A DNA stretch of 64,000 nt from Zootoca vivipara (Eukaryota), in contig NC_083284.1 of assembly GCF_963506605.1 (NCBI RefSeq), positions 35,278,001 through 35,342,000 on the forward strand, read 5' to 3'. This document shows, in pieces, positions 6,621 to 49,401 of this stretch. A model generated the notes under the pieces. It saw nothing but the letters and a program-made list of their open reading frames with translations, did not search any database and was not told the DNA's origin. The stretch's first letter is position 1. Each line of letters opens with the position of its first letter. The translations under genes and the position numbers were made by a program.

Positions 6621-7588
6621 TTTCACAGATGAGACTACAGTATTCTACAATGAAGCAAATAGCTACAATGTGGGGGAAGGTGCTTCTTCACTTTCACAGC
6701 TGTGGTCTTTAAGGTGATGGACTGCACTATGAACAATGACGTGGAAGAGGACTTGTACATGGATGAGGACAGGAGCACCAATAGCCTCACAATCCACCTT
6801 GTACAGACAGCAACTAGTGGCTCTTGTTTTGGAATCTGCCATGAGCAGAGGATAGTGGTTGTCCTTTATTGGCAAATAAGGTGGACAGGTAAAGAAGATG
6901 ACAAGAGCTCCTGCTTTTAATAATTGTGGAGAGAGGAAATTTCAGCAGGTATGGCTTGCAGCTCAAGCCAAATATTAATCCAAATATTAAAGGTGCAGGA
7001 GCCCTTTGCCCTTTTTCATTTGGCCATCCTATCGGCACCTAAACACATGCCATTGCACATCATTGGCATTGCCACATGGACAAATGAATTGCCAGCATTT
7101 GCCTCACAGCTTGCTCAGGAAAATTACTTACTGTTCTGATATTGTAAAAGTTGTTTGTGCTAGAATTAACAAGAGGCCATCCGTTAGTAAGTCCATAGCA
7201 ACTTTCCACTCCTGAGAGATTGCTCATATCCTTAGAACCCTATTTCCCTCCAAAGCAAAGGCAAACAAGTCAAACATGACTCACTGCACAACTACAAGTA
7301 AATGCCACACTGATTGACCAACTAATGATCAGTGTGGCAAGATATAGCAGCCATTTTGTTCTATACCACAGCCCATGACGCCCATTTTGTCTTATACCGT
7401 TTCACCTCAGCAGCCATTTTGTGTCACGCTATACATCCACGGCAGCCATGTTTGTGGCTGGTGCCCATAGCACACTCTCAAATTCCAAAAGTACCTACTG
7501 ACCTTTGACTTAAGCACACATACTCCCTCTTGGATTTTGCAACAAAGTAATGAATTAAGTCAGTAAAAGAGCATCTGCCCACACTTAC

Positions 7589-9103
7589 CTGACCAAGGGA
7601 GGGAAGTGTTCCATAAGCCATCGTCTGGTTCATCATTCCTTTCTGCTTCATGATAAGCATGCGTTTCTGCTCCTCACTCAAGTGTGTCATTTGAGCCTGC
7701 ATCTGCGGTTGTTGGGGCTGCTGCTGCTGCTGCTGCATGTATGGCATCATGGGATTCTTGCTGGGATTGGCCATCGGTGGAGTCATTCTTTGACTCAAGT
7801 CAGCATTGAAATGAGTCAGAGGTTTAGTGTTGCCATAAGAAAGCATATTGGTTTGTTTGCTCAAGGAGTTTGTACCCAGATTATTTGGCTGCTGACTGAT
7901 CATATTCATGTGGTTTTGAGGGAGGTAGTTATTCATCGTAGTCTTTTGTGGGTTGCTTGCCGTAGGAGGCACTACAGGATTTTGGTTGTTAAAGGCTTGG
8001 GGATACATCATTGGGCTATTTGGTTTGTCTGTACTGTAGGGTCCTCCATAAGGACTAGATGGAGGCCCCACTGGGGACCAGCTAGATGCTTGATTTGGAT
8101 GCTGCTGCTGCTGCTGCTTTTGCTGCATGAGCTTAGCTCGTTGCTGCTGCTGTGCTGCCATCTGTTTAAGCTGTTCGGCTGGAGATAAGTCAGTGCTGGG
8201 CACAGCCACTTGCCCAGGCCCCGGGGCAGCTGTTGTCACTGTTGTTGGATTAATGAGATAACCATTACCCGGTCTTGACTGAGTTTGGCTTGGGGTATGT
8301 GCTTGGTTAGGCGTCTGGGGTGACTGAACCACACAATTTGCTGGTGAGCTGTCAGAGAGTGGAGCTGGGGGCGCACTAGAGACAGAAGGTATGCTAGATG
8401 CTGTAGGGACATTTGAAAATGGAGGACCTGAAGAAGAAGGCCTTACCTGGGGAGACCCAAGAGGAACATGGGCAAATGGAGAGTGAGATGGGTCACTTTT
8501 AACACTTGCACTCTCTTGAATCTCAGTGGCTGGTCTGGGAAATTCAGGCTCCTTTTTCTCTTCAAAGTCTTCATTGAACAAATCTTGTATGTCATCCTCT
8601 GGAACAGTGTTAGCCAGCTCATCTATTAACTCCTGCCACTCTTGATCATTCAGGTTAATGTCTGAAAAAAGTTTATTCTGATTTGAAAGTGATGTGTCAG
8701 AATTGTCCATGCAGCTAGGATCATCCAAGGGTTCTTGTTTTAGCTCCTTGCTGTTGTTGCTGTTGTTGTGCAGGATGTTAAAACTATCCTCAAGCTCTGT
8801 GCATCCATTGATTGGGAGTTTTATCTCTGGAAGTCCACCGTTTTTACCCAGGTCATCCAGACCACCAGCATGAGTTCCACTGTTCTGCAGGGGCAGTGAT
8901 GGTTTTATGTCAAGCTGGTGAAGAGGGGAAATAGAAGGCAAAGGCAAATTATTGGGCAAGCTATTGATTCCCTCAATCCCAGGTACATCCTTCCGTATCC
9001 GCTTGCTGGTTGGGGAGAAGCTACTGTCACAGACGCCATTCTGCTGTTCGCCATTGAGGGGTGAGCGTGCTCCTTCCAACTTTCTCTTCACCGTCTCTTG
9101 AAG
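7589..9103 (-). CDS. MAML3: Mastermind-like protein 3, large internal coding exon (exon 2), 505 codons
   Basis: Translation LQETVKRKLEGARSPLNGEQQNG...KLFSDINLNDQEWQELIDELANTVPEDDIQDLFNEDFEEKKEPEF...AEQLKQMAAQQQQRAKLM...HLSEEQKRMLIMKQKG...LPSLGQ matches vertebrate MAML3 exon 2 as recalled. Acceptor on minus strand is ttttgttctgtttcttcaag|CTT (AG at 9105-9104). Donor is CAG|gtaagt (7588-7583). Length 1515 nt, phase 0-0. The ORF-track start (9127) and tail (7478-7588) are intronic read-through. Confidence 0.96.
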
Positions 9104-12100
9104 CTTGAAGAAACAGAACAAAATCATTCATTAGTCTCTTGCACACACTTCTGCCCTTCATAAACAAAAAACACAAAAAAACACTTTACGCAATAAACTA
9201 TACTCACAGCAAATTTATTATAATTCATAACCTGTATATTTTCTCTCTGTGCCTCATTGGCACACAACGCTCCCCCATCAAGTGCTGAGTATATGGGGTA
9301 TACAATGATAAAGAGCCATGTGGGAGAAAGACAGGAGCCAGGAGGGCAAAAAGGGTATAGCAGTTGGGGGTACGGGACACACAAAGTGTGTTTCCACACC
9401 CTCCTTGAGTGATTTTGCTTGACTGGAATTGTGTCCCTGAACTGCAATAGTGTTTCCTACTGTTATTGATGGAGAAAGGTGTGTATAGAAACCTCTGAAT
9501 TCTGCATGGCTTGAATGCAGCCTATTACATAAAGGCAAGAGTCACATTTGTTTCTCCACCCAATTTTTACATCTGGCCATGACCATCACTGGTAGGTGGC
9601 TGAGGAACGTTTTCCATGAGAGAATATTGGCCCCTTCAGCTGCAAAGGTTCCCCATCCTGGGCTCTATCATCAGTGATGCTAACATAAATTCTCAGTTTT
9701 GATAACTGACATGTATATGGACTGCTACTGCCTTCCAGTGGATTCTTATGTTTATAATCTAGCGGTTGTTATAATCTAGCGGTTGAACATTGGAGCGCTG
9801 CTGGTACAACAGACTTCCATGCATGCAATGGACCTCTCCTGTCCCTTTCAGCCCCCTGCGTACCCTCAAGGCCTCCAAAGAAGGGGTTTTTTTAATTCAA
9901 AGTTTTTGATATTTCTACTATAAAATAATTCCTCTCCCCATTTTCCAGTTACAGAGTTGGTGTTGCAATCTCCATTGGCCATGATTCCCTGTCCCTGCCC
10001 TCACCTGGGACACTGACATGTGTTGCGTTCTGCCTATTCTGGTAACATTTTTATAAAACAGAAGGAAAGGGGGGAAGGGGATTTTTTAAATAATTAAAAA
10101 AACCAAACACAATGTAGATGGGATCTGCTTTCTGCACAAAGTTCTAAGAAATTCTGCCATATGTTCTGAAACACTCTTCTTGTGTAAAGCATTTGTCATG
10201 AGCTAGGCTTGCCATACCTCAGGAAAATCCCTGAAACATTCTAGTTTTCGGATGTAAAGATGGCATTGGGGGGATTTTTGCCGAAGGTGGCTAACATAAT
10301 ATTTAAATAATAAAAATTAGTAATATACCATGAATTTGGCTCAGCTTTCCTTTACCCACCTAGTTTTCTACAGCAACACATACCAGTCTTTATATACTTG
10401 GTGGCAAAGCAAAGGCAGGCCTCTTCTCAATCACCCTCTTGGAAGTGGCACCCAATAAATGTCCTGTATTTGCAGAACCCAATTGGTTCTGCAAATCCTG
10501 CTTCTCAGCTTGCAGCCATTTTGAAATAAGGACCTACATTTTCCCCTCGTTCCCTTGCCTGGGGTAGATAAGGAAGTTTATTGCCACTGTTGCCTTAATT
10601 GTGAGATACCACTATCTCAACTCCCTGGTTTTCCTGCACTGTTTAGTGTCATTCTGCTGAGAGTTACATTCACAAGACAAGACTCAGGCACCAATTCAAT
10701 CCCATTTAAGCCCTTTTAGTACCACTAAAGTGATGGCACACTGGGATGAAAAACAACTCTTCTAATGTGGAAGGAAGATGCTTCAAAAAGACTGTCACAT
10801 CAGTCTGTCTTTTTAACTCTCTTTAAACCCATTGGACAACGTTTTAAGACAAAGCTGGAGAAATGACTTGCAGCTGCAGTCTCTTCCAAATAAGTTTCAT
10901 GCCTCAGATACTGCTGGCTACTTGTTCTACAAAGCATGTTCATACACTCCACTAATAAAATTCTTCTGTTTCTCTGTGAGAAAAAGTGGATTCTATCTGA
11001 TCTGCTTCCTTTTTCTCCTGCTCTTTTGTAGTGCTGAGCTTGGCTACTGCCCTTCCCTTTCCTGTTTCTATATTTTTGAGCCCGTTGCTTTTCCTTACTA
11101 GGGAGTATTATAATCCTTTAGCAATGAGATATGTTAAAGGTAATATAGTCAAGTTTGGTGCTTTTCTACGCATTACCAAGAATGAGGTGGTAGAGTGATA
11201 TGGCAGAATGATGGACGGCAGCACTTCAGACTGCAGGTAAAATACTTTTTTAAAAAATGTGCTTAAACAAACACTTGCCTCTAGTAAAATAAAATAAAAA
11301 GTTTAACCTACCCAGCTCCCTGCTGTACTGATTTGATAACTCTTTTTCTTTCCATGGGGGAACATTCAGAAATATGATTCTCCCACTTGCAGTCTGAAGT
11401 GGAACAGCCCCAAATTGTGTTTGCTACCTCAAACTACTCTTGGATCTGGCAATGTCCAATTGCCTTTTATATTTAGTTTTACAATTTATGTAATAGGTTG
11501 CTATGCAAAATCAATAAACAAAATTAAGCAAACATTCCTTAGCCTGAGGTATTTGGCCCTGTATCCCTACACTGCTTCCACAGGCAAATAACTGTCATTC
11601 TCTCCTTCCCTGGTGCAGTGTTTTTCTCAAATCAGCAACTTCTTCCTGTGGACAAAGTATGCATTCCTAACACCAGAAACCCTTCATAATACATACATAC
11701 TTTACATCAGTTAGGATATGTACAAATAGTGGAGCATCGTCAAAGGTAATTCAGCAAGCAATCGAGACAACTGCTTGCTGCACTGAATAGCCAGCCTCCT
11801 TACAGGTAAAGAGGTGCAGCCGACAACCCCAGTTCAAATCTAGCCTGGGACAGTTGCATAGCACTGAAATGCAGGTGGAATGAGGTCGGCGGAGTTGCTG
11901 CTTTCTTCCCAAGGGAGTGACACATCCTTCGGAAATAGGTTACATTTATTGTTTCTTCCCCTGTCAAATGGATGGTGCATAATGAAGTCTGGTGCTCTTG
12001 TGTGCTTCCCCTACTCCTCTGTAGACCCTCGACTCAGTAACCTTGCAGGTCGCCTGCCACTTAAAACCTAAACATCGGCTGAGCACTTGAGCATTGAAAA

Positions 12101-21101: not shown

Positions 21102-23861
21102 CTCTATAGCATAAGTGGATCTGTGGATAATTCTGCCGGCAGCTGAGGACTGGACTTGACAGTCTGCTAACTTTATGTCTTCTGTAGGAGGTGGGAATAA
21201 CATTGTCCTTAGATCCATTTTTAAAACCAGTGGTTAGCTCCCCTCATGAAAAAAGGCACTTTACATACACCCAAAAGCAGCTCTGCCATTACTGCCAGAT
21301 TTTGTTGGAAAAAAGAAAAAAAAAGAAACCAATTCTAGTCTCTTTCATCCAAAACAGCCACAGGTGTCACTTGGTTGCCAAATGCCTGCCTGAGGCTCTT
21401 CTGACTTTTGCTTCATTAAGACATGGGCATCAGGCTTCATAGAGCTTTTGCAGCACATGTATATGTTTGGTTCTCTCCTCCCCAACTTCTTGTATTGTTT
21501 TTATATTTTAAGGTTATCATATTATAACTGAAGGCTCATCCACATTTACACTTCTCCTACTGCTTCCCCCTGGGGAAATGTGCTCCTTACCTTGGAACTG
21601 GAAGAAATGTCAATTGGATTTTTCACAGATTGACATTTGCTCCAATACAGCTGTAAAGAGTGGATTTTCCTGAGCAAGTGATGGAGCAAACAGAAAACCA
21701 CTCAAAGCTGTTTCTAGAAAGCACAGGAGAAGTGGAAAACCAGTCGGATCCATGCTTTTTTTCTATGCACAAGACAAGTGAAGTGGGGGCAAGCCTTGAA
21801 TATGCTGCTGTTGCTCTGAGGATGATTTCAATGTTTTGTAAATATGTTGTTTTAAAAAATGATGTAAGCCACTTTGTGGAAAGTCTTACACCCTTGCACT
21901 TTAGCAGAATCCAGAGACCTCTTTCAAAAATTCCACAGTATTTGATTTATGAGATTCCTCCAATGGAGGCCTGAAAACACTCCAAAGTGCTAATTTGTTT
22001 CAGCAGTAGCTTGCATTCATGGAAAGGGAATCAAGCCCATAAGACTACTACTGAAATTAGGACAATGAGAGCAGCATCTGCAGTTGCTAGCATCAGAACT
22101 ATTGTGACTGTTGAATGCAAACAACTTATTTTGTGCTACAAAGGCCACTGGCGGCTTGGTCTTCCAAGTGCCGTTTTAGAGCAAGCCCCAGTGAAGCAAA
22201 TAAGCTGACAAAGCATGTCGAGGATCACAGCCGACAGGCTTTGAAAGAGATGGGGATGCCAAGAGGAAGGGCTTATGTTTGACATTTTTTCCTGAGGGTA
22301 TAACAGAAGCTGTGTGCTCCGAGGAGGATAGCTTCAAGAACATGGACCAGAAGGTCAAACTACACCACAGGAAAAAGAAAGGCATAAACACAGGAGTGGA
22401 AGAGACAAGCATATGGAACATCTCATCTGGTATACTGCCACACCACATAACAATAGGGAAAGGACAGCATGACTGCACCATCATCAAATATATAATAACT
22501 TAAATCTGAAAAATCACAGAATCGGTTCCATTAAGGTGGAAGGATATGAGCCACAGTTCCAAATGCCTTACTTCACGGGTGTCAGAGTCAAGGCCCGGGG
22601 GCCTAATCCGGCCCGCCAGACCTCGTGATGTGGCCCGCTGCCCGCCCAGGGCCGGAACGTTCACTTAGGCACGCCTGTGGTGGCTTTCTTTCCCCTGAGC
22701 TTACGGCGCGCTTTTGTTTTCTTTCTGAGGCTGCCGGGCTCGGGGCTGGGGAGGAGGGGAGAGGGGCGGGCTAGGCTAGCAAGGCGCCGCATTATTGGCT
22801 GGCTGGCGTGACGCTGCCGCCCCTCCCTCCTAACTGGCCCGCCCCTCGCCTCCCTGCTCCTAGAAGGCGGAGCATGGTGCTGCGCCTCTCAGCTGTTTTT
22901 TTTTGCTTCTAGGGGGGGCAGCTGCGGGGGGGAGGAGGAGAGGTTTGACAGGGAGCAGGGAAGGCACGGGGGCTGCCCTTCCTCCTCCCATGCCACCGCC
23001 AGCGTGCCACTGCAGCTGCCCCCCTAGAAGCAAAAAACAGCTGAGAGGTGCAGCAGCCGGAGGAGGAGCAGGAGAAGGTGGACAAGGTCGGGGCCTCTGC
23101 AGCGGTGGCGGCGGCTCCGCGTCCGTCCGTCCGGGCTCCCGTCCGGGCTCCTCGCCTTGCTCCTGGCCAAGACGCGCCCCTCCCTCCCTCGCCGCCTCCT
23201 TGTCCCTCCTTCCTCCCCTTCCTCCGCAGGCTCCTCCTCGCGCCCTGCGCGCGGGCATCTCAGCGGCAGCTGCAGACGCCGCTCCTGCTGCGCTTGCAAT
23301 TGCAAGCAGAGAGGGCTGCTAGCAACGCCTCTGCTTTATTTCTCCACCGCCCCCTCCCTTCCAGGAGCCCGGGTCAGGATCCAAGCGCCACCCAAGACTT
23401 TTCTCCCTCTTTGCTGCTTTCGGGTGAGCACGGAGGATGGCTCCACCTCCTTCCCTCCAAAGCAGCTCCGCTCTGGGAAAAGCGAGCCTGCCCCTCCTCC
23501 CCTGCTCCGTGAAGCATCTCTGCCGCTTGCAAAAGCTTGCTTTTACAAGCTGCGGGGGGAGGGGGAGAGGTTTGACAGGGAGCAGGGCAGGCACGGGGGC
23601 TGCCATCATGAAGAGGAGGGGAGCAGCCCTTAACGATGCTGCTCTTCTTCCTCCCAAGCCACTGCCAGCATGCTCCGCTTTTGCGGTGGAGGGGGGAGGA
23701 ACGAGCAGCCCACCCGCGTTAGCAGCCGCGGTGACAGGAAAAAAGTCGCTTCCCTTAGCTGCTCTTTGTTGAACGGGGCGAGGGGCAGAGAGGGCTGCTC
23801 CAACCCCAAGATACACACAGAGAGCCCTTAAGCTTCTCTTCAACACCTCTTTACTTGCTTC

Positions 23862-26360: not shown

Positions 26361-27013
26361 CAGCGTTTCTCAACCGGTGTTTCGCGGCACAGTAGTGTGC
26401 CGCGAGACACCGGCTGGTGTGCCGCGACGTGCGGCGAGGAAAAGGGCACTTTGCATTGCTGACGGACTTCTGGCGAGGCAAGATGGCGCGCGGCACGGCA
26501 GCGCGAAGCTCCTGAGAGCGACCAGCGTGCCCGTGCCACCAGCCTAGCCTCCGGACCGCCGGAACTGCCGCCGGTACGCGGGCGCCAAGAGAGCCCGGCG
26601 GATCGACCGGGGAGCCGCTGGAGGCCCCCCTGCGACCCCACCGGAGCGACACCGAAAGCGCCCGGCTGGAGGATCGACGGACCCCTGGGCTCCACGGCAG
26701 CCGCGTGGGCGTCAGAATCGCCCGGCGGATCAAGCGGGGAGCCGCTAAGGCCCCCCAGCGAGCCCGCCTGCAGCCGGGAAGAGCTCCGAAGCCCGGGACC
26801 TCCCACAACGCGACGGCCCTGCCTCGTCGCCGCAGCCGTCGCCACCCCAGCCGCCCCAGGAGAAGAGGAAAAGGAGGGAGCCCCCCCCCAGGTGAGGGAA
26901 AAAGGGAAAGATAGGGAGGAGAGGGCCCCCCGCCCCCCCAACCCATGGTGTGCTGCGGGATTTTTTTTCATTGAACAAGTGTGCCGTGGCCCAAAAAAGG
27001 TTGAGAAACACTG
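26361..27013. mobile_element. Non-autonomous hAT with CpG-rich interior
   Basis: TIR cagcgtttctcaacc/ggttgagaaacactg; TSD ctttagat (26353-26360, 27014-27021). Confidence 0.92.
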
Positions 27014-31101: not shown

Positions 31102-32271
31102 TACCAGTAAGAGGAAAAGGCCTGCCTGAAAGTCATACCTAACTTCACATCTTCGGCTCACTCAACTTCCAAAGTTTAGCACTTAAAAAAGAAGATTAAA
31201 ATAATATACAATGGAACGTGATGTACTTGTGATGCTACTGCTGCAAAGGAGATGGAGAAGCAGCTGAGATGTATTGGAGAGCGAACAGAGAGAAAAAGTA
31301 TCTGTGCCCCACAAGCAAAGTCTACAGCAGATGGGACAGAACAAACTTCTGCTGAAGTACTAACAAGAGGAGAAAGACAAGAAAACAAAACGAAATATCA
31401 ATGTCAGATCAAAGCAAAAGGCTTGGAACACAGAGGCCCAGCACTGCAAGGGGTTAGATTTTCCAACACAGATTTGCTTGTCCTTCCATGCTGATGAAAG
31501 TGTGCTGAATTCCCCCCCCCCCACACACACCATGCATTCTAATATAAAGGCTGGGGAAATGGGGACTTGTTAAGCATTAACACATTAACCACTCAATGCA
31601 TTGGTGATCTGTAGCAGTAATCCTTGGCAGGCAACTCTGATTAGGGAAGGTACTCCCTTGAGCTACAGTCTCATGGCCAGAGTAATTTCTTAAGGAATAA
31701 CTCATCTTCCCTGGTTTTCCTTCATGATTCTCACTGTGTAACCTGTGTGCATGGGAAATACACATTTTCCTATTTTACAACATGTATACATCATGAAATA
31801 TGCACATGAACAGGTATAATTCCCAAGGAATAAAAGTATCATATGGATGTTTGAAGTCAAGTAAGGCGGATGATATTTTCCCACCTATTTAATTTTGCTG
31901 ATAGGGTACTTTTTGAGCAAAACTTACTCCTTTGCCTGTGAAAAGGTATGGATAATGAAAGGAAATCATGAGATGTTCCTGATAGGTATTAGCTTTCTGA
32001 TCTGCATTCACTGCATGTGTTCATGTGTGTAACGTCTGTTTGTCAAGTTGGGTTATGCAAAAGTCAAGCCAAAGGCATTAAAAAGAAGATGGGAAGCATT
32101 GCTTGTCTTGCCACTTTTACAGGTGTATATAACACACCGGCATGTGGGAGAGACAAGCACTTACATTGTTAAAAGAGTATAAGACATTTGGAAACACATA
32201 AATGGCCTGACTTCCACTGAAACTGCCCTTGGCAGATCCACCTCTGTTGGTGCAGGTCTGTTCTAATCCTA

Positions 32272-33251
32272 TCCTATATAATAATGTCCAAGTTGTCCCT
32301 GCGTCCAAGCTGTCCCGTGTGTCCCTGGGTCACTGCGCATGTCCCCCAGGGACACAGGGATTGGACAGCAGAGACTGGACACACACACGCGCGCTCTCCC
32401 CCCCCTCTGCCTCTTCCAACCGCCGCTCTCCAGACAGTGCCTCACTGCACTTGCGTTAAAGCGCGAGGAGGAGGAGGCTGCTTCCCCCCCTACACTCCCC
32501 CTAGGCGCCGGCTGAGGGAGGCAGGGCGCGTTGGGGAAGCGAGGGTGGAGGAGGTGAATGGGGGGAGGTTTGTGCCTGTGTGTGAGAGGGAGAGGGCACG
32601 TGGAGGGAGGCGCTCACACCCCTTTATCTCTACCGCCTTTCCCCTGGGCTGAGGGCTCGGGCGGCCGTTGCTGCCGCCGCTGCGCCTCTTTGTGGGGGCG
32701 GAGCCCCGCCGGGCGCCTCTCTTTAGTTCCTTCACTCCGTGACGGGGAAGCGGCGCCGCGGCCCCGGCTTCTCCTATAGCCGAGCGCCAGGGTTGCGATC
32801 TGGCCTTGCCGCTGCTGCTGCCGAGACGCGCTCTGTACCGGGAGCTGAGCCAGTTTCCTCAGGTGACTTACCGTATGCCAGTGTAGGAGTCTGGTTTGCT
32901 GCCGGCGGTGGCGGCTGCCGCCGAGTGCCTGCCCCTCTACACTGAGTGCCTGCCCCGTCGTGGGGCCGCCGCACACCAGGACGAGGCTGCCACCTCCTCC
33001 TCGCCCTCTTCCTGGGGCCGCTTCTCCCCGTGCTCCGGCTCTGACACCAGGCCGGGCCTGCCCAGCAGCGCGCCCCACAGAGTGTAGCTGCTGCCGGGGC
33101 CACTTCCCTCAGCCTGCTGCGCTGGCTGCTCTTCGGGCGGCGGCGGCGGCAAGAGTAGCACATCCACCTGGGCCTGCCCCATCGCCGCCGCCACCAAGAG
33201 GCCGCCACATATGTTCTAGCGCCCGTTTTTAACGGGCTGAAATGACACTAG
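32272..33251 (+). mobile_element. Non-autonomous Helitron with GC-rich captured interior
   Basis: 5' end a|TCCTATATAATAA; 3' hairpin GCCCGTT-ttt-AACGGGC (33221-33237) 10 nt before the terminal CTAG (33248-33251)|t; inserted between A and T with no TSD. The 5' TC could alternatively be 32267. Confidence 0.82.
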
Positions 33252-33911
33252 TCATGTATAAGATGTGTGTGGCAGGGCAGAAGGAGAGTATCCAAGCCAA
33301 AAGTGCAAAGTGGGTATGCTCATGGAGATTCTTGAATCTTCCTCCCTTTCATAGTGTATGCCTTTGAAGTCTGTTGTGAAAGTTAAAAAATATTCAGACC
33401 CAGCCAGGTTACAAGAGAGATGAGCCCAGCTGGGAGAACATCACCTTGAGGGCTACACTGAACAGAGAAATGCCCCTCTTACTTTTTAAATCCACCCCCC
33501 CATCCAACCTCGCACTTGATATGTGATTGGGAAGACTTCCGTTTGAATAAATGTCTGCTGCTATCATACCTGGCTTGGCTCTAAATAGTTTCATTTGCTA
33601 CTATGTTGAAGACCTGATTTGTGGTTGTGTTTATGTCTGCATGAAGCACTATGAAGGCTTTAACAGGGTTCCTGCACCATTAATTAAAACTTCCTGTTGA
33701 AAGGGCTTGCCCATTTTACTGCTTCCACTGGAAGAAGCACATCTACATCTAACCATGTCACTTCTGTAAGAGCCTGTCCAGAAAGAGTACAAACACTAGG
33801 AAGAAAACTTTGTCCTATCAATGCTTTAATTAGAAGTTCGGAAAAATGTAGACTCAAAAAGATGAGGCACACAGTTGCAGTGGGCGGCTTTAAAGAAGAG
33901 GAGATGCTAGA

Positions 33912-47288: not shown

Positions 47289-49401
47289 CCGTGTTTCCCC
47301 TTTTTAAAGACGTAGTCATTAAGTAAGCCATGGCAGCATTTTTAAGCATTTGCGAAAGATAAGACATACCCCGAAAATAAGACATACCTCCATGCCCTGT
47401 ATGAAAACTAACACCCTCCTTATGGCCACTACTGGGAGTAAGATGTCGCTGAATTAGACTGAGATCCTATTTAAGTGACTAGATTTTGGATTTTAAAAGC
47501 GAGACCGCCGAGCGCCCCAGCCAGCCAGCGGGACCCAGCCAGCCAGCGGGGCCTGGGAAGCGGCTGCTGTTGTAGTGGTGAGCTCGCGGAGCGCCCAGCC
47601 GAGGAGATCTGCCGCCCCACCGGCCGGAACCGACTGCTGCAGAGCGGAGCGCTCCGCAGCGCCGAGCACTCAGAGCGCCCAGCAGCACCGGGCGGAGCGC
47701 TGGAGCCAGCGGCCTCGCCTCCGCCCGGCCGAGGAGACCTGCTGCCTCGCCGTCCGGAGCGGCTGCTGCAGAGCGGAGCGCTCCGCAGCGCCGCCGCAGA
47801 GTGCTCAGAGTGCCCAGCAGCACCGGGTGGAGCGCCGGAGCCAGCGGCTTCGCCTCCGCCCGGCTGAGGAGACCTGCTGCCCCGCCGTCCGGAACGGCTG
47901 CTGCACAGCGGAGCGCTCCACAGCGCCGCCGCAGAGCGCTCAGAGTGCCCAGCAGCACCGGGCGGAGCGCCGGAGCCAGCGGCTTCGCCTCCGCCCGGCC
48001 GAGGAGACCTGCTGTCCTGCCGCCCAGAACGGTTGCTGCAGAGCGGAGCGCTCCGCAGCGCCGCCGCCGAGCGCTCAGAGCGCCCAGCAGCACCGGGCGG
48101 AGCGGCGGAGCCAGCGGCCTTGCCTCCGTCCGGCCGAGGAGACCTGCCGCCCCGCCGCCCGGAACGGCTGCTGCAGAGCGGAGCGCTCCGCAGTGCCGCC
48201 GCCGCGCGCTTAGAGCGCCCAGCAGCACCGGGCGGAGCGCCGGAGCAAGCGGCCGGCCGGCCGGCCGCCAGGAACCAGCTGCTGGAGCGCGCAGAGCGCT
48301 CAGCAGCTCAGAGCACCCAGCAGCGCCGGAGCCAGCAGCCTCGCCTCTGCCCGGCCAAGGAGGCTTGCCGTCCTGCTGCCCAGAACCAGCTGCTGGAGCG
48401 CGCAGAGCGCTCAGCAGCTCAGAGCACCCAGCAGCGCCGGAGCCAGCAGCCTCGCCTCTGCCCGGCCAAGGAGGCTTGCCGTCCCGCTGCTCAGAACCAG
48501 CTGCTGGAGCGCGCGGAGCGCTCAGCAGCTCGGAGCACCCAGCAGAGCCCTCGCCCCTTTCTTCTGCTGTCTGGCCTGTCTTTAAAGGGGCGCAGCGGAG
48601 AAAATGCCTTTAAAGGGTGATCGGAGGGGGATGCGGTGGGAAGATGGGAAGATGGGGGCTTTCTATTTCATTATTTAATAGGGTTGCCATATTTTGCAAA
48701 AGCAAAAAAGAGGACGCATTTGGCAACTCCTGCTTTTAATTATGGATCGCTATGACGACTCTGCCTGTGATAAAGAGGACGTGTCCTCGAAAAAATATGA
48801 GACATGGCAACCCTATTTATATCTATATTTGCTCCATTGGTTAGAGCATGGTGCTGATGATTCTTCATTGCAGAGGGTTGGACTAGATGATCCTTGGGGT
48901 CCCTTCCAACTCTTCGATTCTATGATCATCTGGAGGGACACAGGTTTTCCCATCACCGATGGAGAAGACCTGTGAACCTGAAGACCTGAGAATATAGTAC
49001 TGTACAGCTGGAAGGGGTCCCCCAAGGGCCATCCAGTCAAACCCCCTGCAATTATGCAGAAATCACAGCTAAAATAATCCCCATCAGATGGCAGTCACAG
49101 CTGGAGAAGCCTTGGCCATCCAAACCTGGGTTTTAAAACCTCCCATGTAGGAGAGTCCAAGCTCAATAGCACCTCAGAGCACTGAAATCTTTGTGCATAC
49201 ATTGTATTGTTCTAATACATACAACAGCCTTGTCAGGTAGGACAGAGCTCAGCAGCGCTGCGCGTAGCACACAGCAGCACCCCGAGCCAGCGGCCTGGCC
49301 CAGCCGAGGAGACCATAAGACACCCCACCAAAAATAAGCCACCCTGTGTTTTTTTAACGAAAAAAGTTATAAGACGGTGTCTTAAAAAAGGGGAAACACG
49401 G
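47289..49401. mobile_element. 2.1-kb non-autonomous Tc1/mariner-pogo-type element with minisatellite and composite cargo
   Basis: TIR ccgtgtttcccctttttaaagac/gtcttaaaaaaggggaaacacgg, TA on both sides (47287-88, 49402-03), subterminal ataagac motifs. Confidence 0.88.
47590..48545. repeat. GC-rich minisatellite: ~5 units of 135 bp then ~2.5 units of 111 bp
   Basis: gaggaga anchors at 47601, 47731, 47866, 48001, 48136; aaccagctgctgg anchors at 48273, 48384, 48495. Confidence 0.92.

Follow-up and report, generated by a model that had tools for sequence, protein, structure and literature searches.

The Helitrons of vesper bats capture host sequence at the DNA level with a bias to promoters, 5′UTRs, first exons and first introns, and they do so sequentially, sometimes in antisense, with a progenitor seldom found beside the donor (PMC4224331, PMC4778049); in all of these respects the lizard element described below is similar. 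Examples from bats include HelibatN3 (NUBPL), N217.1 (TMBIM4, in reverse orientation) and N22 (PMC4224331, PMC4778049). HelibatN3 combines a working promoter, a start codon and a splice donor with more than 1,000 copies (PMC4224331, PMC4778049), whereas the lizard subfamily has five copies, no captured start codon and a damaged native donor, and draws on six donors in 0.8 kb. In Xenopus laevis, the non-autonomous copies of a second family, Heli1Xen1, hold 19 captured CDS fragments, 17 of them from 5′ ends, and the cause of this 5′ bias is described as ‘undeciphered’ (Li & Pollet 2025, PMC12001565). Heli1Xen1 is horizontally transferred and has been reported in Zootoca, Lacerta and Darevskia; in the available text of that study, however, capture is analysed in X. 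laevis and for CDS only (PMC12001565), whereas five of the six pieces in the Zootoca element are non-coding. Elsewhere in squamates, HeligloriaB is described from Anolis, where gene capture goes unreported in the available text (PMC2997563).

Maize Helitrons are also comparable, as several unrelated gene fragments lie between one pair of ends. Stepwise capture of multiple genes was reportedly described there by Dong and colleagues in 2011. The capture Helitrons of maize are kilobases long and mostly exonic, whereas the Zootoca pieces are CpG-island fragments of 70-270 bp, in a vertebrate. Our literature search (most subscription papers, Repbase and Dfam lay outside it) found no gene capture by a squamate Helitron. 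Here we describe such a case, and we are confident of its overall reading: a non-autonomous Helitron with Heli1Xen1-type ends whose interior is a six-piece CpG-island mosaic, likely acquired by separate DNA-level captures, and likely joined by recombination between Helitrons, the copy at this site being likely inert.

A non-autonomous Helitron in a MAML3-like gene

The window analysed here is a 64,000-nucleotide stretch of Zootoca vivipara DNA, in which a 1-kb rolling-circle transposon within a MAML3-like gene is a non-autonomous canonical Helitron (Helitron1). The preliminary description had recognized a squamate Helitron from an A|TC 5′ end, a terminal hairpin, CTAG|T at 33251 and the lack of a target-site duplication, and each of these hallmarks is present. 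A|TCCTATATAAT is found at 32272, TC termini occur at 32272 and also at 32267, and CTAG occupies 33248-33251, giving the 5′ TC and 3′ CTRR of canonical ends; there is no target-site duplication, with A before the element and T after it. The left end (32272-32379, plus strand) comprises the TC start, TATATAATAA and a long imperfect inverted repeat, and the first 100 nt of the element fold with a z of -6.6. The right end (33205-33251, plus strand) comprises a GC-rich hairpin and CTAG; the hairpin, GCCCGTT-TTT-AACGGGC at 33221-33237, has a 7-bp stem, ends 14 nt before the terminus and folds as DNA at -7.6 kcal/mol (z -3.0; 1 of 200 shuffles equally good). A hairpin followed by CTAG|T of this form occurs once in the 64-kb window and in none of 20 block-shuffles. 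GC and CpG observed/expected (o/e) are 0.67 and 0.70 in the element, compared with window values of 0.44 and 0.32.

Comparison with an empty site fixes the boundaries of the insertion. Contigs of two other species (organisms B and C) join A32266 directly to T33252 and omit 32267-33251, such that the left boundary lies at 32267 and the insertion is 985 bp long. The block had been described as starting at 32272, and a TC end is indeed there, from which the element measures 980 bp (32272-33251), but the insertion extends 5 nt further. These 5 nt (TCCTA, 32267-32271, plus strand) belong to the insertion and form a stutter of the 5′ terminus, seen in two of the 55 elements extracted below (the other being L029). 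A second Z. vivipara individual, from the one conspecific run examined, has the insertion.

The element is multi-copy and shares its ends with other copies at A|T sites, as anticipated. Its own genome contains five near-full copies (100, 97, 96, 91 and 90%) and many partial matches; the five lie in unrelated flanks on contigs C1, C7, C9, C16 and C17, differ from one another by 2.0-4.0% substitutions, and when aligned all start with TCCTATATAAT and end with CTAG, with A upstream and T downstream. We extracted 55 complete elements from loci found by similarity to the window element, a sample therefore biased by its queries, and their target sites are A|T in 52 cases, G|T in two and C|T in one. 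Genome-wide, 1,976 sites fit a degenerate 3′-end pattern exactly, against none for the pattern reversed as a control, and exact family 3′ ends occur on average once per ~730 kb. The block is thus not a single-copy sequence conserved at the orthologous MAML3 intron site.

The preliminary description placed the block in a MAML3 intron, and the element does lie upstream of a MAML3-like exon. This large exon (7481-9127, minus strand) encodes the MAML1/3 transactivation domain (Pfam MAML1_3_TAD1, TAD2; Atlas protein clusters named MAML3, 0.93), and the element is ~23 kb upstream of it on that gene's strand, probably in intron 1. Elsewhere in the window, 47592-48549 contains GC-rich tandem arrays (a 135-bp unit x4.9 and a 111-bp unit x2.5), and each strand there has long open frames. 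Neither these arrays nor the further CpG-rich blocks at 22501-23500 and 26501-27000 match the extracted Helitrons.

Relationship to Heli1Xen1

A PF14214 profile search gave 24 matches in the genome, eight of them in a 1658-aa open frame with Helitron_like_N and PIF1 domains. The autonomous RepHel element is ~6,580 bp long and has both ends in common with the window element (three of the eight loci were fetched with flanks): the left end is 95% identical to it over 104 nt and the right end 90% over 49 nt. Its protein is annotated in Zootoca vivipara, with near relatives among the matches listed in Hemicordylus, Erpetoichthys and Polypterus, and its 90% protein cluster includes X. laevis LOC108706566, the Heli1Xen1 transposase (Li & Pollet 2025, PMC12001565). 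The Zootoca RepHel and LOC108706566 are 91.9% identical over 1401 aa, well within a threshold of at least 80% RepHel identity when this is read at the protein level, the criterion in PMC12001565 itself being nucleotide. The end motifs of Heli1Xen1 are also present, namely TC and a TA-rich tract on the left and the CCCGTT…AACGGG hairpin with CTAG on the right. By eye, the left end at 32272-32379 is strongly like the Heli1Xen1 left end printed in the supplement of PMC12001565, and the 21 nt just before the hairpin show no difference from a Xenopus copy given there.

Judged by sequence, the element's ends match those of Heli1Xen1-type autonomous elements of Zootoca, which by transposase (91.9%) and end motifs belong to the same family as Heli1Xen1 of X. 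laevis (PMC12001565). The preliminary description, which knew of no such family in lizards, was incomplete on this point: Heli1Xen1 had already been described in Z. vivipara, with capture analysed, in the available text, only in Xenopus (PMC12001565).

Family members also cluster in the genome. On C1, a pair of intact autonomous copies lies in facing orientation at a distance of 17 kb (C1:43682393, plus strand, and C1:43699542, minus strand), and near-identical non-autonomous copies form local clusters at C4:96.66-96.79 Mb, C10:69.63-69.66 Mb and C1:47.64-47.65 Mb. Nested or head-to-tail family copies occur at L007 (C6:31339302 region), L015 and L071, and in L007 CTAG is followed directly by the next TC start.

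Six donor loci

On sequence comparison, the interior of the element is a patchwork in which six pieces each match a CpG-island-like 5′ region, from six unrelated host genes. Six host loci account for 801 of the 980 bp (E 1e-88 to 9e-15) and 26 interior bases are without a donor match; none of 50 shuffles and none of three control islands matched. The interior had been expected to have a non-repeat host match, and it does, but with six loci rather than the single parental locus foreseen for 32400-33210. Likewise, the proposal of a captured host first exon and intron start survives in part, as a portion of RNF215 exon 1 with 21 nt of intron 1 is indeed present, but as one of six pieces. Donors were defined as genome matches without Helitron ends, and each search scored its best 40 candidates, so that closer donors could exist. 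At this depth direct queries with modules A, B and D gave only Helitron copies, and their donors were found via longer sibling pieces. The donors measured, together with a C2 duplicate described below, have GC of 0.63-0.73 and CpG o/e of 0.71-0.89, and 15 of 419 background windows pass GC 0.58 and CpG o/e 0.55. Module orientations are mixed.

Module A (32380-32501, plus strand) matches the CpG island between the head-to-head genes DAZAP1 and GAMT (C6:3927361-3927518; 70% gapped, 11 mismatches, E 4e-19), both named from the best PDB matches of flanking exons, and its source lies ~350-510 bp upstream of the likely DAZAP1 ATG. Module B (32500-32568, plus strand) matches a CpG island on C7 (C7:69276698-69276619; 78%, E 9e-15). 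This island is just inside a candidate first intron, ~27-33 kb upstream of same-strand exons with a GKAP domain (Pfam GKAP E 1.5e-25), and probably belongs to the gene of those exons, which may be DLGAP4. In the window copy, modules A and B are gapped matches of 70-78% identity; sibling elements hold better ones, with module A at 93% to its donor in L110 and ~470 contiguous bp of the C7 island at 84% in L104.

Module C (32582-32762, plus strand) is a sense piece of SLC4A7 intron 1, from +77 to +256 relative to the splice donor (C12:16911147-16911326; 91%); the gene was identified from its downstream exon, whose best PDB match is sodium bicarbonate cotransporter 3 (E 9e-31), and six simple siblings hold a contiguous 600-bp SLC4A7 piece with exon 1 and its donor. 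A degenerate duplicate of SLC4A7 exon 1 and intron 1 (83-89%), without Helitron ends, lies at C9:28745608-28746490 (L103/L126). Module D (32746-32832, plus strand) is a sense piece of the CASTOR1 5′UTR region (C17:19641987 to ~19641905; 91% over 70 nt), and local alignment carries the match on to 32832. The CASTOR1 ATG is at 19641888, and the exon 1 peptide at this donor favours CASTOR1 (E 1.5e-12) over CASTOR2 (0.096).

Module E (32828-32942, plus strand) is DNA from upstream of TRPM3 in antisense (C11:93838-93733, 83%; duplicate at C2:54402022-54401922, 81%). The source lies 1.3 kb upstream of the TRPM3 ATG, the gene being named by a 100% match; the exon-1 peptide searched against Atlas protein clusters gave nothing usable. 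The C2 locus (L047, C2:54401654-54402730) is a 1.1-kb duplicate (82%) of the TRPM3-upstream region, and the siblings' pieces are nearer to it than to the TRPM3 locus, the longer ones being 84-93% identical to C2 versus 78-84% to C11. At the junction with module F, 13 nt (32943-32955, plus strand) with no donor match are a local duplication of 32923-32935.

Module F (32956-33206, minus strand) is antisense to the Helitron and comprises codons 28-110 of RNF215 exon 1 and 21 nt of intron 1 (C17:18554480-18554749; 84% gapped, 13 mismatches). The source exon is 100% identical to Z. vivipara RNF215, and the remaining RNF215 exons follow on C17. This locus is single-copy outside a 314-bp captured stretch, and all 15 other matches nest inside that stretch, which points to one capture followed by trimming. 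The captured piece has short indel states as in Zootoca (33110-33120, minus strand), and it encodes Gly, like Podarcis and Lacerta, at a position where the Zootoca gene has Asp, which may help to date the capture.

Donors of other sibling subfamilies were also observed. A first exon encoding a ZDHHC palmitoyltransferase (L190 1501-1687, C9:58172000-58172186; best PDB match ZDHHC20, E 1e-6) is the antisense-captured donor of an abundant subfamily (L076 type), and two further Helitron-free CpG islands, L234 (C17:12159793-12159950) and L244 (C9:62207574-62207673), also donate to sibling subfamilies. L234 lies just before an ATG whose peptide looks, by eye, like a mitochondrial presequence.

Assembly of the mosaic

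The sibling elements preserve plausible intermediates. Among the 55 extracted elements, 30 match one donor, eight two, eight three, three four, five all six and one none, and simple siblings have long contiguous pieces, e.g. 860 bp of the C2/TRPM3-upstream region. As sibling subfamilies carry the modules singly or otherwise combined, the mosaic was likely built by recombination among Helitrons after separate captures. Two layouts are of particular relevance: L006/L008 have the 5′ end, modules A, B, C and D and the 3′ end, whereas L012 has module E, then a 3′-end remnant, then module F. Older 3′-end remnants precede the RNF215 piece in both L012 and L013. The window element follows the L006/L008 type up to the GCGCTCT that precedes the old terminal hairpin and then continues with module E, which opens with a near-identical 7-mer. 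In a tree built from 12 RNF215 pieces the five subfamily copies fall together (80/87), but none of nine inner branches is strongly supported; the tree was left out of the ordering, and the assembly order rests on common blocks and short microhomologies.

The presence of introns and upstream DNA among the pieces, in both orientations, excludes mRNA intermediates. Retrocopying or LINE-mediated capture was likewise rejected, given intron 1 and upstream DNA and the lack of polyA and a target-site duplication.

For the primary capture step we favour end-bypass over gap repair, which is a real rival. Under end-bypass, RepHel from autonomous copies would mobilize the non-autonomous element in trans, and the primary captures would have arisen when replication of a copy that had landed in an open CpG island continued beyond the 3′ hairpin. 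Three observations are the basis for this preference. First, Helraiser insertion is 6.9-fold enriched in CpG islands, with ~11.7% flank transduction (PMC4778049). Second, old ends precede later modules. Third, one of the six donors has a family member nearby, in RNF215 intron 1, whose 3′ end lies 945 bp from the captured piece in the orientation suited to read-through. This member is 1,206 bp long (C17:18555702-18556907; L011 2723 onward), with a variant 5′ start and an interior unlike those of the 55 extracted elements. Against read-through there, the first 152 bp of the 945-bp gap, the part searched, are found in no Helitron copy.

Alternatively, the pieces might have been gained by double-strand-break or gap repair inside Helitron intermediates, with template switching onto open chromatin and no read-through. 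We regard this as possible, if somewhat unlikely. It would account for the five of six donors that have no adjoining family ends (none within 20-70 kb around these five; none within 70 kb around the DAZAP1/GAMT donor), for the microhomology and the 13-nt local duplication at junctions, for the occurrence of the RNF215 piece in both orientations and on the 5′ side in L040/L044, and for the shortness of the pieces (70-600 bp). However, old 3′-end remnants ahead of later modules (L012, L013) are expected under end-bypass, the suitably oriented 3′ end near the RNF215 piece (945 bp away) contrasts with one exact end per ~730 kb, and read-through has been shown experimentally for Helraiser (PMC4778049). 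A progenitor beside the donor is equally scarce in bats, with three of 29 assessable cases (PMC4224331 section 15).

In the preferred scheme, recombination between copies would have followed the primary captures: an L006/L008-type 5′ half (A+B+C+D) would have switched template to an L012-type segment (E+F) at the 7-nt microhomology just before the old 3′ end. A few million years ago the composite would then have spread to five sites or more, with neutral decay since.

Age and distribution

The invasion of Zootoca by Heli1Xen1 has been dated to 0.58 My from autonomous copies (PMC12001565). Nine of 10 autonomous loci are 99.3-100% identical, in keeping with 0.58 My as the date of the most recent burst and not of the family's arrival. 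In contrast, the non-autonomous copies are 2-4% apart and 5-9% from the RNF215 donor, implying longer residence; the RNF215 pieces differ from the gene by 5.1-8.7%, or by 2.4-5.0% without CpG transitions. At a substitution rate of 2.56e-9 per site per year (PMC12001565), the five copies date to ~4-8 My and the RNF215 pieces to ~5-10 My, the first of these being inflated by CpG-rich DNA. These divergences suggest that the family entered the Zootoca lineage well before the published 0.58 My. In organism B, family ends and the RNF215 and CASTOR1 pieces are far above single-copy flank depth (depth not being copy number), whereas in organism C the donors are at single-copy depth and its contigs, in which a gap is no proof of absence, show no family ends.

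Coding and splice signals at the insertion

The preliminary description read a strong Kozak ATG (33182), an ORF and a consensus donor ACG|GTAAGT (32872/32871) on the minus strand as signals of a captured gene. The ATG and the donor-like site are both there, but they arose after capture and were not inherited, as both are missing from the donor loci. The start of RNF215 lies 27 codons before the captured piece, and the gene reads GCG at the position of the element's ATG; this ATG occurs in all five subfamily copies, and is absent from the gene and from all six other carriers readable by motif scan (for four more loci the scan gave no output). The donor-like site (32866-32875, minus strand) lies inside the TRPM3-upstream module and was created by a 5-nt insertion that is missing from the donor loci L046 and L047 and from carriers L005, L012 and L045. 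It is intact in two of five copies, variants including GTAAGC in L003 and a +1 G changed to T in L004, and the native RNF215 donor, CTG|GTGAGC, has become GTGTGC in five of five.

The ORF also exists, as 81 aa from the derived ATG (32937-33182, minus strand) that keep the RNF215 frame for ~64 codons before a 13-nt deletion shifts it, and a Pfam scan of it found no family. However, it ends at a TAG (32939-32937) 65 nt before ACG|GTAAGT, and because it stops short of the donor, the ATG, the ORF and the donor are not parts of a single coding exon. The GC-rich DNA beyond the donor, formerly taken for the start of an intron, maps instead to other loci on C6, C7, C11/C2, C12 and C17.

Could the MAML3-like gene nonetheless have taken over the window copy by exaptation, as an alternative promoter or first exon? 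The ATG (33182) and donor (32872) share a strand with the MAML exon (9127-7481), which makes exaptation conceivable: a start codon and a strong donor stand in the gene's sense orientation, as in the exon trap of bat HelibatN3, which drives chimeric transcripts (PMC4778049). CpG o/e is still 0.70, and the insertion is present in a second individual. We nevertheless consider exaptation very unlikely, since the ORF stops before the donor, an open ATG frame and an intact donor occur together in none of the five copies, and no RNF215 promoter or transcription start was captured; of the features of a HelibatN3-type trap, the captured promoter and native start are absent (the RNF215 piece begins at codon 28), as is an open frame to an intact donor. 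Weak evidence against it also comes from expression. In ~6% of one RNA run (X21, tissue unspecified), 335 reads were placed, of which five were at least 99% alike, and this sample shows zero depth over 32552-32906, no splice joint at 32872 and no chimeric spliced transcripts from the element. A weak one-strand signal at 32978-33261 is most simply from RNF215 itself. A search of sequencing runs listed no RNA run as a carrier.

In the same RNA sample, the 5′ ends of other family copies are common on both strands over 32268-32409 (depth ~70-100), these reads being mostly less than 95% alike and 93% of them running into other sequence. Relative to RNF215, CpG transitions make up four of 13 substitutions in the window copy and 12 of 20 in L157, a share consistent with methylation. 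On the evidence of ~6% of one RNA run, the window copy is likely an inert, neutral passenger. Finally, the presence of a true first coding exon (RNF215) with 21 nt of intron 1 would fit a single capture from one gene, taking in the ATG, donor and intron start of its first coding exon. The donor map refutes this, however: the source loci lack the ATG and the donor, and the DNA past the donor maps to five other loci (C6, C7, C11/C2, C12, C17).

The autonomous leader and implications

The family itself and the capture of 5′ gene regions by Helitrons (in bats and Xenopus) are already known, as are stacked captures. What is new is the lizard case, with six named donors inside 0.8 kb and intermediates that still survive, together with an older implied residence and an autonomous leader with DAZAP1/GAMT repeats. 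This 5′ leader (nt 124-738) has seven short matches to the DAZAP1/GAMT island (E 1e-8 to 3e-4), whereas of eight other islands only one gave a match, to a short, weak TC-repeat. The DAZAP1/GAMT module is present in 40 of the 55 sampled elements. The leader of one intact RepHel element (L142 4958-5700, C3:101613957 onward) has its DAZAP1/GAMT pieces scrambled and repeated.

Among vertebrates, 5′-end capture by Helitrons had so far been documented in vesper bats and Xenopus; our findings add a squamate. Each of the six pieces was captured at the DNA level from a CpG-island-like region, in line with the CpG-island preference of Helraiser, and the named donors and extant intermediates make the cause of the 5′ bias directly testable. 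A full catalogue of the family is feasible, given ~2,000 copies and eight intact transposase loci of near-identical sequence, and the family may still be active. Insertions of this kind resemble CpG islands and first exons, and annotation can be misled by them. More speculatively, and with rather low confidence, we suggest that after its transfer Heli1Xen1 may have become a collector of CpG islands whose copies trade promoter modules, and whose own leader might have been rebuilt from the DAZAP1/GAMT bidirectional promoter, which would now drive the transposase. If this is true, capture of a host promoter would account for both the onset and the persistence of a transposon's activity after its transfer to a new host.
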